Shown here piece by piece: positions 42,850-61,539 of a DNA stretch of 64,000 bases. Under the pieces are notes generated by a model that saw only the letters and a program-made list of their open reading frames with translations, did no database searches and had not been told where the DNA came from. The stretch's first letter is position 1. The number at the start of each line of letters is the position of its first letter. The stretch is from a virus. Made by a program: the position numbers and the translations under genes. The stretch covers positions 27,153 through 91,152 of the IMG/VR virus record IMGVR_UViG_3300027851_000016. One strand, written 5' to 3'.

Positions 42850-42926
42850 CTCATCAGTAAGATTTCTTTGCTACATTGCTTGACACAGAACTCGTTATAT
42901 GTCACGATGATAGTAGAGAACTACCC
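42850..42926 (+). repeat. 77-bp promoter cassette duplicated at 52910-52986
   Basis: Two mismatches between the copies. Confidence 0.9.
42880..42908 (+). promoter_or_regulatory. Conserved early promoter P1
   Basis: TTGACA-N17-CACGAT with TGn extension. Confidence 0.85.
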
Positions 42927-49595: not shown

Positions 49596-49936
49596 TGCAG
49601 GGTGCCTGCCTGGATAGGCTTGGCCCACCCGTACTGATACCGAGGGACTGGTTGCAGGACCTTGGTGTTGACAGTGCGGTACTGCTAGCGATGCTACGAG
49701 AGCTACTGCACTCGGAACGCGTGCGTGGAGTAAGTGAGCGCGTGGATAGCAATGGCTTCGTGCGGCTCACAGTGGCTGAGATTCAGAGCAGGATGCCTTG
49801 GTGGAGTGTTGCAACGGTGCGGCGAAGGCTCACCAAGTTGGTCGAGTTGGGGTACCTGGTGGCGGTCGAGTCGGAGGATAGTGACCCGCGTGACCGAGCC
49901 TTGTGGTATGCGCTGGGTGGTGAAGCGCATGAATGA
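49592..49936 (+). CDS. Winged-HTH protein
   Basis: WSVATVRRRLTKLVELGYL...WY. Confidence 0.75.
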   Translation: MMQGACLDRLGPPVLIPRDWLQDLGVDSAVLLAMLRELLHSERVRGVSERVDSNGFVRLTVAEIQSRMPWWSVATVRRRLTKLVELGYLVAVESEDSDPRDRALWYALGGEAHE

Positions 49937-50951
49937 TGAGGGAGATGTCCTGTTGCTGGATGAGCCGATGCTGATGGTGCAGTCGAGACTTGCGGTGGCA
50001 CTCGGCTTGAATCAGGCACTGTTCCTGCAGCAGGTTCAGTACTGGTTGCACACGAACAAGAAGCATGGGCGCAACCTGCGGGATGGTAGGTACTGGACGT
50101 TCAACTCGTTTGAGGCGTGGCAGGAGGAGAGCTTTCCGTTTTGGAGTGTGAGTACGCTCAAACGGATTGTCGGTACCCTCGAAAAGGCTGGTGTGTTGCT
50201 GACCACCGACAAGTACAACAAGCACGGGTACGACAACACGAAGTGGTACAGCATCGACCGTGAACGTCTCGCAGAGGTAGTTGCAAGTGGAGTACTGTCT
50301 GAGAGTGTGCAGAATGAGCAAGCCACAGTCCAAGTTGACACGGTGGAGTGTGCAGTCAATCTGAGCACCCCACCGTGTCAATCTGACACGTCTATCGTGT
50401 CAACTTGGCACGACAATCGTGTCAATCTGACACGAACAAGACCAGAGACTAACGCAGAGATTACGGCAGAGACTAGAGATGTCGCGCACCCCGCGACCTC
50501 ACCGCGCGTAGGGGCTTTGGAGCGACCTACGAAACGGAGCACCAATCCTCCTGCGGTGTCGGTGGAAGAGGCGGTCGCTGCGGCCACTGAGCGGTCCATA
50601 GCAGCGCGAGAACGGCGTGGCAGTACCAAGAGGCGTAAGGAGCCTCAGAAGAACGCGAACACGGCACTGGCGCGGTTCAGTGAGTTGTTCACGGAGACGT
50701 TCGGCGGCGTGGCACCTATTGAACTGGCGAAAGACCGTGCACTGATGAAGAAGCTGGTCGAGCACCACGGGTACGAGACTGTGGTCTCGTGGGTGGAGTG
50801 GATGTTCAGGAACTGGGCTGTGATGCGTCGTGAGTGCAAGCTGACAGGTGTACCGACCATCGGTATGTTCTTCGGGTTCCGAGGGTACCTGCAGGAGCAT
50901 GCTGGGGTCGTTGAGGTCGGTGCAGACAGTGCCAGTCCGTGGGGTGTCTGA
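49929..50951 (+). CDS. Replication initiator (HTH, lambda O-like organisation)
   Basis: LGLNQALFLQQVQYW, FPFWSVSTLKRI, KWYSID; internal iterons; followed by loader and helicase. Confidence 0.85.
   Translation: MNDEGDVLLLDEPMLMVQSRLAVALGLNQALFLQQVQYWLHTNKKHGRNLRDGRYWTFNSFEAWQEESFPFWSVSTLKRIVGTLEKAGVLLTTDKYNKHGYDNTKWYSIDRERLAEVVASGVLSESVQNEQATVQVDTVECAVNLSTPPCQSDTSIVSTWHDNRVNLTRTRPETNAEITAETRDVAHPATSPRVGALERPTKRSTNPPAVSVEEAVAAATERSIAARERRGSTKRRKEPQKNANTALARFSELFTETFGGVAPIELAKDRALMKKLVEHHGYETVVSWVEWMFRNWAVMRRECKLTGVPTIGMFFGFRGYLQEHAGVVEVGADSASPWGV
50326..50434. repeat. Palindromic iterons, probable replication origin
   Basis: CGTGTCA-N3-TG(A/G)CACG at 50374, 50396, 50418 (22-bp period); degenerate copies at 50352 and 50326. 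Confidence 0.85.
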
Positions 50952-52865: not shown

Positions 52866-52894
52866 AGGGTGGGCCACTGGCCCGCCTTTGTTGT
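52866..52894 (+). terminator. Intrinsic terminator
   Basis: AGGGTGGGCC-ACT-GGCCCGCCTTTGTTGT. Confidence 0.75.
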
Positions 52895-52939
52895 ATCTGC
52901 AGGATGTTACTCATCAGTAAGATTTCTTTGCTCCATCGC

Positions 52940-59555: not shown

Positions 59556-59584
59556 TTGACACAGACTACGTTATATGCCACGAT
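59556..59584 (+). promoter_or_regulatory. Conserved early promoter P5
   Basis: TTGACA-CAGACTACGTTATATGC-CACGAT. Confidence 0.82.
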
Positions 59585-59633
59585 AGTAGTAGAGAACCAT
59601 CCCGCACACGGTGGGATGGTAGACGTGAAGGAG

Positions 59634-59888
59634 ATGGGGAAAGTGGCCGAGTACAACGGGACAGTGAGGATAGCGGGGACGGAGTACAGGATTCGGCAGG
59701 CTACAACGCCAGCTGAACTTGAGGCTAACGACCTGCCCGAGGCGGCAGAGTGGATGCGTTCGATGGGCTGGCTCGAAGACCTCGTACTCGAAAGCCCGCA
59801 CGGGCATGTGGTCCACGCTGCGCTCATCGCCAAGGGTGCGTATGAGTTCTTCGACCCAGACCAGTTCCACCTGATGGACGCACAGTAG
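59634..59888 (+). CDS. Hypothetical protein
   Basis: First ORF after P5. Confidence 0.6.
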   Translation: MGKVAEYNGTVRIAGTEYRIRQATTPAELEANDLPEAAEWMRSMGWLEDLVLESPHGHVVHAALIAKGAYEFFDPDQFHLMDAQ

Positions 59889-59898
59889 GCTATGATGA

Positions 59899-60075
59899 GC
59901 ATGAGCACGGTGCTCAGTTCGGTGAACGAGTCAGCGCTAAAGCAGGGGCTGGTCGGGTACGCCCGACATGCCGTGGAGCGTACCCCCATCTCCGCTCCGC
60001 ACGGCGACAGCAATCGCGCTACGGGTAGTCCTGCGCCCAATGGCTCGTTCATCGACCTGAGCACCGTGTTCTTGT
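59899..60075 (+). ncRNA. Unclassified structured RNA (~170 nt)
   Basis: About 30-bp terminal stem with G-U pairs enclosing a multi-way junction with a UACG-loop hairpin. Confidence 0.7.
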
Positions 60076-60094
60076 TGTGGAGGGAGATGGGGAC

Positions 60095-60927: not shown

Positions 60928-61539
60928 ATGGGCTTTGAAGAGGTAGTGTGCGGACTCATGCTGGGCGATGGTTCCCTGGAGAGGCGCGGGAACGCTCGAC
61001 TGAAAGTGCTTCGAAAGCAGGAGCATGCAGAGTACAACGTGTGGTTGAAAGCATTGCTGATAGATGACTTCGACTTCGGGCCAGACCAAGAAAGCCATAC
61101 GCAGGATGCACGTACGGACAAGGAGTACCACGGGTCCCGCATCAAGACACATGCAGATGAGCGCCTGACCGTGCTGCACACGTTGTGGTACGCGGACAAG
61201 AAGGTAGTGCCTGTTGCTTTTGTGGAGCAGTACTTCACGGCGTTGTCCCTGGCTATCTGGTACTTGGATGATGGCACGCTGACGAGGACGGGGAAGCAGG
61301 GTTACTACCGTACAGTTCTTGCAACGAACTGCTTCAGTCATGAAGAGGTCGCGTATCTGAGTGAGTTGCTTGCGCGGAGGTTTGGAATCAAAGCGCATGT
61401 AACACCGTGGCAAGGAAGATACGTACTGCGCATGTTTCAAGAAGAGAGCACGAAGTTATTAGACGTGGTCGGCTCTGTGTTGCCTGCACAAGGACTTGAG
61501 TGCATGCAGTACAAGCTGCAGATGATGGGAAGGTTGTGA
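60928..61539 (+). CDS. Free-standing LAGLIDADG homing endonuclease
   Basis: GLMLGDGSL, LSLAIWYLDDG, TNCFS; MQYK terminus. Confidence 0.88.
   Translation: MGFEEVVCGLMLGDGSLERRGNARLKVLRKQEHAEYNVWLKALLIDDFDFGPDQESHTQDARTDKEYHGSRIKTHADERLTVLHTLWYADKKVVPVAFVEQYFTALSLAIWYLDDGTLTRTGKQGYYRTVLATNCFSHEEVAYLSELLARRFGIKAHVTPWQGRYVLRMFQEESTKLLDVVGSVLPAQGLECMQYKLQMMGRL

Follow-up and report, generated by a model that had tools for sequence, protein, structure and literature searches.

Genomic setting and the P5 transcription unit

The window analyzed here is a 64,000-nt stretch of DNA comprising bases 27153-91152 of a 91,152-nt IMG/VR phage record, which is rated complete by CheckV. It has a G+C content of 59% with a strong skew of G over C, and all of its genes lie on the + strand. 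Since the DnaB-like helicase of this phage is at most 28% identical to those of cultured phages, its relatives were considered distant. The element described below is located in the replication/early region, 3′ of the genes for a DnaD-like initiator, the DnaB-like helicase, and a primase, and ~4 kb from the end of the contig. A second contig (83,680 nt) carrying the 70-aa ORF that overlaps the element was found to represent the same phage, as the neighboring protein is identical except for the reading of its start codon, and it therefore adds no polymorphism data. The locus contains the following features.

59556-59584, + strand: promoter P5, with −35 TTGACA (59556-61), a 17-nt spacer ending in TGn, and −10 CACGAT (59579-84)
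59616-59888, + strand: first P5 cistron, called by the gene caller as 90 aa from ATG 59616
59627-59640, + strand: ribosome-binding site of the first P5 cistron, GAAGGAGAUGGGGA, complementary to the apical loop
59892-60104, + strand: overlapping 70-aa ORF (called as 69 aa, P0121), with no homologues
59898-59933, + strand: 5′ arm of closing stem P1, containing the palindrome GAGCAC-G-GUGCUC (59903-15)
59934-60040, + strand: branched core, four hairpins in the minimum-energy fold
59981-59993, + strand: 12-nt apical loop UACCCCCAUCUC plus the closing C, containing CCCCAUCUCC (59984-93)
60041-60076, + strand: 3′ arm of closing stem P1, containing GAGCAC-C-GUGUUC (60059-71)
60067-60078, + strand: U-rich tail UGUUCUUGUUGU at the 3′ foot of the stem
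60080-60093, + strand: GAGGGAGAUGGGGA, which serves the next cistron as its ribosome-binding site, repeats 59627-40 directly (13/14), and is likewise complementary to the loop
60095-60895, + strand: downstream cistron, 266 aa, a member of phrog_6186, widespread in phages

The transcription start of P5 is predicted to lie near 59591. Its promoter belongs to a set of eight genome copies of the motif TTGACA-N-AGA-N4-GTTATA-N-G-N-CACGAT, all on the + strand, which are located at 42880, 45806, 52940, 55854, and 59556 of the window and at G000:C1:11854, 14722, and 18087 of the record. Two related phages have conserved the family, with 6 copies in G002 and 5 in G003; in these, the −10 is TAAGAT, TATAAT, or TAAAAT, lies 17 nt from TTGACA, and is preceded by TG, and these forms identify the family as sigma-70-type promoters with an extended −10. 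In this phage, the −10 (CACGAT) is unusually poor, although the −35 is perfect and the TG extension is present. The 88-nt promoter-leader module of P5 is 86% identical to that at G000:C1:11852-11937. Canonical intrinsic terminators were found directly 5′ of promoter P1 (42802-42836) and of promoter P3 (52866-52896). In addition, short hairpins adjoin the −35 of P5 (59533-59553, GGUAAUC-N7-GAUUACC) and that of P4 (55826-55850); these could act as operators or terminate the preceding unit.

The first P5 cistron has no homologues that we could find, and a Shine-Dalgarno sequence supports GTG 59643 as its start (81 aa). The strong stem of the element begins 15 nt past the first base of the stop codon of this cistron, and the Shine-Dalgarno sequence of the next cistron starts 4 nt beyond the stem. 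The promoter scan yielded no promoter-like site of the element's own, indicating that it is transcribed from P5, ~300 nt past the start.

A long stem closes a branched core in an unusually stable fold

A sequence-only reading of this DNA had proposed a structured RNA in which 30 bp, three of them G-U pairs, are formed by 59903-17 with 60057-71 and by 59919-33 with 60041-55. The computed fold reproduced these coordinates and pairs, and all three G-U pairs were located in closing stem P1 (G59905-U60069, G59922-U60052, and U59931-G60043). Four additional pairs between 59898-901 and 60073-76 lengthen the stem, which thereby comprises ~34 bp, in segments of 4, 15, and 15 pairs interrupted by two 1×1 mismatches, one of them a U-C mismatch at 59918/60056. 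The earlier argument that G-U pairs without A-C mismatches reveal selection on the + strand RNA proved weak, since three of three transitions have a probability of 0.125 and the strand itself favors G and T.

Inside closing stem P1, the branched core has an 8/6-nt internal loop and a 5-bp stem (59942-46/60030-34), which leads to a multiloop with four hairpins. The first (59952-67) is GUCGGG-UACG-CCCGAC with a UACG tetraloop, and in the second (59973-60000), GUGGAGCG and CGCUCCGC form 8 bp around the 12-nt loop; both had been recognized from the letters and are present in the minimum-energy fold. In place of the single short third arm described earlier, the fold has two small hairpins, at 60004-17 and 60018-29. 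The proposed pseudoknot between GGGUA (60023-27) and the loop is possible by complementarity to UACCC (59981-85), but a 5-nt match of this kind is not significant.

The minimum free energy of the + strand, computed with RNAfold, was −105.1 kcal/mol, compared with −70.4 ± 4.5 kcal/mol in 200 dinucleotide shuffles, none of which was as stable (z = −7.65). The minus strand folds less stably (−92.5 kcal/mol; z = −5.8). When the element was folded within 671 nt of transcript context, 30/30 arm pairs persisted with a mean probability of 0.995, and the duplex energy of closing stem P1 was −59 kcal/mol. The arms (59900-33/60041-74) form the top inverted repeat of the 64-kb window, the longest within 250 nt. 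The element was also among the two strongest sites in a sliding fold of the 91-kb genome, and it lies 5.1 SD below the G+C regression of 1,185 windows from related phages. These results indicated that the element is a real and unusually stable RNA fold of ~180 bases, far beyond chance.

The most strongly folded stretch of the genome lies outside the window (G000:C1:5780-6030). It has a G+C content of 72% and contains GGGUAGGACA in four copies, with several G+C-rich hairpins after them, and it may be a packaging or regulatory site.

The element matches no known RNA family and appears specific to this phage

The structure, which is large and strand biased, had been described as unlike known RNA families, and the searches bore this out. 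Rfam 15, whose families include tRNA, tmRNA, SRP, 6S, phi29 pRNA, small ribozymes, introns, and riboswitches, gave no match in the whole window at the gathering threshold, and at E ≤ 10 its sole match to the element was the plant microRNA precursor MIR1437, with 24 bits against a threshold of 168; this identity was dropped as a generic long-hairpin match. No tRNA or tmRNA was detected by ARAGORN. A retron msr-msd RNA was ruled out because the genome encodes no reverse transcriptase, there being no RVT_1 match in the 91-kb genome while the controls were positive. We also rejected a MITE-like element, as the sequence is single copy in the phage and no direct repeat abuts the arms.

A group I intron associated with a LAGLIDADG gene was considered and discarded, since that gene is free-standing and lies 850 nt downstream, with no intron match. 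The gene itself, a LAGLIDADG homing endonuclease gene (60928-61539; PF03161, E = 1e-31), follows the 266-aa gene and precedes the next conserved one; at this place, the syntenic locus L006 has just a 220-nt gap.

Near and distant DNA searches of 50,697 phage records retrieved nothing for the element. A covariance model built from its single sequence found no match in 81 loci with homologues of the downstream gene or in 54 whole related viral records (4, then 50), and it found no homologue of the element in loci fetched by exact patterns; its matches in a Pseudomonas contig were unrelated REP-like palindromes lacking the core. The exact pattern of the loop hairpin had no match in viral contigs and 14 matches in metagenomes, which agree in the pattern alone. 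An arm 20-mer had six unrelated chance matches, none beyond chance, in 185,579 species genomes.

The downstream 266-aa gene has thousands of homologues, none of which exceeds 59% identity, and there is thus no close relative of this phage among 5.8 billion proteins. Eighty loci were fetched around these homologues. The most syntenic of them, L006, keeps the 125-aa, the Cys-rich 64-aa, the 266-aa, and the following genes, and between the Cys-rich and the 266-aa genes it contains just a 50-aa ORF and no structure (z = +0.3). Thus, the block consisting of P5, the first cistron, and the element is specific to this phage.

A folding scan 5′ of the homologous gene in the 80 loci revealed a structured leader in a distant relative (L020; z = −6.3), which was examined as a counterpart and rejected, being a terminator plus local hairpins unrelated to the element. 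In that relative (L020:2330-2495), the terminator and the strongly folded leader precede the homologue of the 266-aa gene, and CCAUCAC pairs with GUGAUGG beside the Shine-Dalgarno sequence, between self-complementary GGGCC/GGCCC blocks. This leader may mask the ribosome-binding site of a gene of the same family in an unrelated way.

An overlapping ORF carries a coding signal in the arms

The gap that the element had been noted to fill is also covered exactly by the 70-aa ORF, whose ATG (59892) is 4 nt past the upstream stop and whose stop (60102-04) overlaps the start of the next gene. This raises the reading that the region is a gene for a small protein (69 to 70 aa) without homologues, translated by coupling to the upstream stop, with the hairpin being a secondary feature (for example, one adjusting the translation rate or the stability of the mRNA) or what remains of an inverted duplication in coding DNA. 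The ORF was predicted by the gene caller (P0121), and its codon score of 0.17 falls into the in-frame range of real genes, far over off-frame windows, and exceeds that of base-pair-preserving shuffles (p about 4e-5 to 3e-4). Its GC3 is 0.79 to 0.81, compared with 0.51 to 0.56 at codon positions 1 and 2 (shuffle p about 0.001 to 0.002). The neighboring first cistron likewise lacks homologues, so their absence is normal in this region.

Several observations argue against a protein gene, however. An open frame over such a structure is expected by chance with p = 0.19 for this frame and 0.47 for any frame. The coding signal is confined to the two complementary arms (scores of 0.37 and 0.68), which are complementary in a register that pairs third with third codon positions, while the 35-codon core scores −0.03 and has, by hand count, a GC of 0.72/0.61/0.72 at the three positions, with no period-3 pattern. 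None of the three candidate ATGs, all of which lie at the foot of the −59 kcal/mol stem, has a Shine-Dalgarno sequence (−3.0 to −3.4 kcal/mol, whereas 97% of genes have −4 kcal/mol or lower).

The ORF is not conserved as a protein, its sole match among 1.84 billion representatives being itself. Peptide searches of viral contigs and metagenome contigs yielded no relative, and the ORF matched no family in Pfam, PHROG, or NCBIfam. The predicted fold was not confident (AF2 pLDDT of 62 and pTM of 0.27; ESM Atlas pLDDT of 0.46), and the composition is Ser rich with few charged residues. Given this evidence on both sides, we regard a small protein gene as somewhat unlikely to be the explanation of the region; such a role is compatible with an RNA function of the element, and the two are not exclusive.

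The stem resembles an RNase III substrate and ends in a U-rich tail

The coding strand of the 91-kb genome contains no TTTTT and only eight clusters in which 7 or more of 10 nt are T, among them the tail UGUUCUUGUUGU. The chance of such a cluster falling within 10 nt of the end of the stem is ~1e-3. The tail has UUGUUGU in common with the canonical terminator at 52866-52896 by promoter P3, and it follows directly upon a G+C-rich stem (ending at 60071-76), an arrangement typical of intrinsic terminators. At the same time, the element is not a compact terminator hairpin, as 107 nt and four hairpins separate the arms, and it was not called in a scan with a terminator consensus pattern. G and C residues interrupt the U-tract, some of which is paired to the 5′ side.

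An idealized RNase III substrate has 22 bp (PMC3867540), and closing stem P1 exceeds this double-stranded length of about two helical turns. No RNase III gene was found in the phage genome, and the enzyme acting on the stem would be that of the host. Both arms carry GAGCACNGUG(C/U)UC, that is, GAGCAC-N-GUG(C/U)UC, and 13 bp of the duplex are therefore dyad symmetric. Such symmetry would suit a homodimeric enzyme, and it would equally suit a dimeric DNA-binding protein.

The latter possibility leads to a reading at the DNA level, in which the arms are two palindromic operators (GAGCACNGTGCTC) 156 bp apart for a dimeric regulator, the element is a cruciform or recombination site, or it is a duplication or insertion scar without function. 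Each arm indeed contains the 13-bp palindrome, at 59903 with no mismatch and at 60059 with one, and the good folding of the minus strand would be expected of a DNA element. Furthermore, 14-nt direct repeats (13/14; GA(A/G)GGAGATGGGGA) at 59627-40 and 60080-93 bracket a 453-bp block containing the first cistron and the element, and the whole block is missing from the closest syntenic phage, L006. Judged from these flanking ribosome-binding-site repeats and the 86% identical leader module, the block seems to have arisen by insertion or duplication into a leader that was already there. Nevertheless, it has no terminal inverted repeats, and the element is single copy in the genome, with no occurrence beyond chance in the species genomes searched. 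The inverted repeat runs ~20 nt past the palindrome, which two operators would not explain, and the palindrome is not enriched in the window (7 matches versus 6.25 expected). The core hairpins, including the UACG tetraloop, are meaningful in RNA alone. An action at the DNA level, or no action at all, is therefore in our judgment quite improbable.

We also considered the element as a replication origin and rejected this in favor of a site in the initiator gene. Within the DnaD-like initiator gene (49734-50951), a cluster of CGTGTCAA(T/C) iterons with nested inverted repeats was found at 50330-50440, and it is probably the replication origin, in the style of lambda O.

The apical loop is complementary to ribosome-binding sites of the phage

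The apical loop contains CCCCAUCUCC, which occurs once in the genome and is the exact complement (10/10) of GGAGAUGGGG. The latter occurs four times in the genome, each time at a ribosome-binding site 8 to 11 nt before a start codon (genome 11927 and 14820; window 59630 and 60083), and the two sites in the window are the ribosome-binding sites of the cistrons flanking the element. A shorter form, the 8-mer GAGAUGGG(G), lies 57 to 98 nt 3′ of six of the eight promoter copies.

The loop is predicted to be unpaired with a probability of ~0.95, also in the 671-nt context, and its duplexes with the two flanking ribosome-binding sites are predicted at −22 and −25 kcal/mol, with an opening cost of 1 to 2 kcal/mol. 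It thus offers an accessible C-rich motif complementary to the Shine-Dalgarno sequence of the same transcript, as is characteristic of an anti-Shine-Dalgarno element. Among shuffles of the loop with the same composition, 1.3% gave a 10-nt match and 0.7% hit at least six leaders. On the other hand, a 10-bp duplex is sterically unable to form in full within a 12-nt loop. As the loop is C rich and the + strand of the genome G rich, comparable duplex energies are also obtained at several unrelated sites. In the related phages that use this promoter family, the leaders carry an ordinary AGGAGG and the element is missing. With leaders that are duplicated modules and with such energies at further G-rich sites, we consider the complementarity suggestive and not compelling.

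These observations bear on whether the element could be the precursor of a trans-acting small RNA. Ribosomal RNAs are excised from long stems that close structured cores, and the element has the same architecture. RNase III would release a core of ~110 to 150 nt, whose loop would pair with GGAGAUGGGG of the promoter-leader modules; translation of the early operons would thus be shut off as the P5 transcripts build up. RNase III-dependent biogenesis of a small RNA has a precedent (PMC8687705). The unpaired state of the loop and the recurrence of the 8-mer behind six of the promoters fit this scheme, as does the match of the 8-mer complement in the loop to six leaders or ribosome-binding sites (p = 0.007). 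Yet the leaders are duplicated modules, such that the shared motif counts as one event and not six, and both the motif and the element are missing from the related phages with this promoter family. A trans-acting small RNA thus appears improbable to us.

Discussion

The data presented here revealed a highly stable RNA structure between two cistrons of an early transcription unit. The view from the letters alone, that a structured RNA lies at this site, was right with respect to the fold, but a free-standing RNA gene is unsupported, since the element lacks a promoter of its own and lies inside the P5 unit. Most likely, it is a structured domain of the P5 early mRNA rather than an independent RNA gene. 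Its placement, its U-rich tail, and its double-stranded stem suggest a role in cis, and the reading that we tentatively favor is that of a cis-acting domain of the P5 mRNA combining a leaky terminator, an RNase III-type stem, and an anti-ribosome-binding-site loop.

In this model, transcription from P5 would cross the first small cistron to its stop at 59888, and the transcript would then form the four-hairpin core closed by the ~34-bp stem. The stem and the U-rich tail would act as a leaky terminator and as a protector of the 3′ end for the first cistron. In read-through RNA, the stem would be a target of the host RNase III, the cleavage of which would part the two cistrons; we infer this from its length of more than two helical turns and from the dyad symmetry of 13 of its base pairs. 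The exposed C-rich loop could pair with GGAGAUGGGG of its own cistron (59630) and of the next (60083) and thereby dampen their translation.

Several known systems share parts of this arrangement. The RNase III signals of phage T7 are simple irregular hairpins of ~50 to 60 nt. The T7 sites R0.3-R1.3 (e.g., R1.1), those of Bacillus phage SP82, and that of the lambda N leader are similar to the element in being intercistronic in an early operon. By analogy, the stem here likewise exceeds the ~22-bp ideal (PMC3867540), a ribosome-binding site lies directly 3′, and the use of that site may depend on cleavage. The element differs from the T7 signals in that a near-perfect stem of ~34 bp closes a 107-nt core with four hairpins and in being a predicted substrate, and it shows no sequence or covariance-model similarity to anything.

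For the loop, the closest parallel is the icaR mRNA of Staphylococcus aureus, in which a UCCCC motif in the 3′-UTR pairs with the mRNA's own Shine-Dalgarno region and creates an RNase III substrate (PMC3868564). That pairing is proposed to block initiation and to feed RNase III (PMC3868564), and both RNAs have in their 3′ part a C-rich motif complementary to their own Shine-Dalgarno region. In contrast to icaR, a chromosomal gene, the motif here resides in a phage, in the 12-nt hairpin loop of a large closed domain, and its 10-nt match includes the spacer after GGAG and extends to the next cistron and to other leaders of the phage.

The intrinsic terminators of this phage at 52866-52896 and 42802-42836 resemble the element in that a U-rich tract with UUGUUGU comes directly after a G+C-rich stem and in that they lie right after a stop codon. 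Unlike them, the element is branched, with 107 nt between its arms versus loops of 3 to 8 nt, and no promoter lies 3′ of it, while the canonical terminators are found just 5′ of promoters P1 and P3. As in the processing stems of rRNA operons (16S/23S precursors), a long helix of distant flanks closes a structured RNA; this analogy is limited by the difference in scale, by the lack of conservation of the element, and by the release of a product being hypothetical here. If the loop acted in trans, the element would parallel RegB and RegA of phage T4 (reviewed in PMC3014915) as a phage factor aimed at a sequence common to early ribosome-binding sites. This would be a purely functional analogy, since the T4 factors are proteins, a GGAG-cutting endoribonuclease and a repressor (PMC3014915), and the factor here would be an RNA loop.

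Beyond the model systems, hardly any regulatory RNA structures of phages are known, and gene callers routinely cover such structures with ORFs that lack homologues. As a single case without comparative support, the element is a candidate for experiments and not a demonstrated new class of RNA. Were it to act in trans as a small RNA, it would be an RNA switch that shuts off translation from the early operons of the phage, an RNA counterpart of T4 RegB/RegA. If the favored reading of a cis-acting P5 mRNA domain is true, one compact module would unite three classical devices of post-transcriptional control, namely an attenuating terminator, an RNase III stem, and an anti-Shine-Dalgarno loop. In a phage with a single promoter-leader cassette common to its early operons, it would provide a testable model for the dosage or shut-off of early genes.
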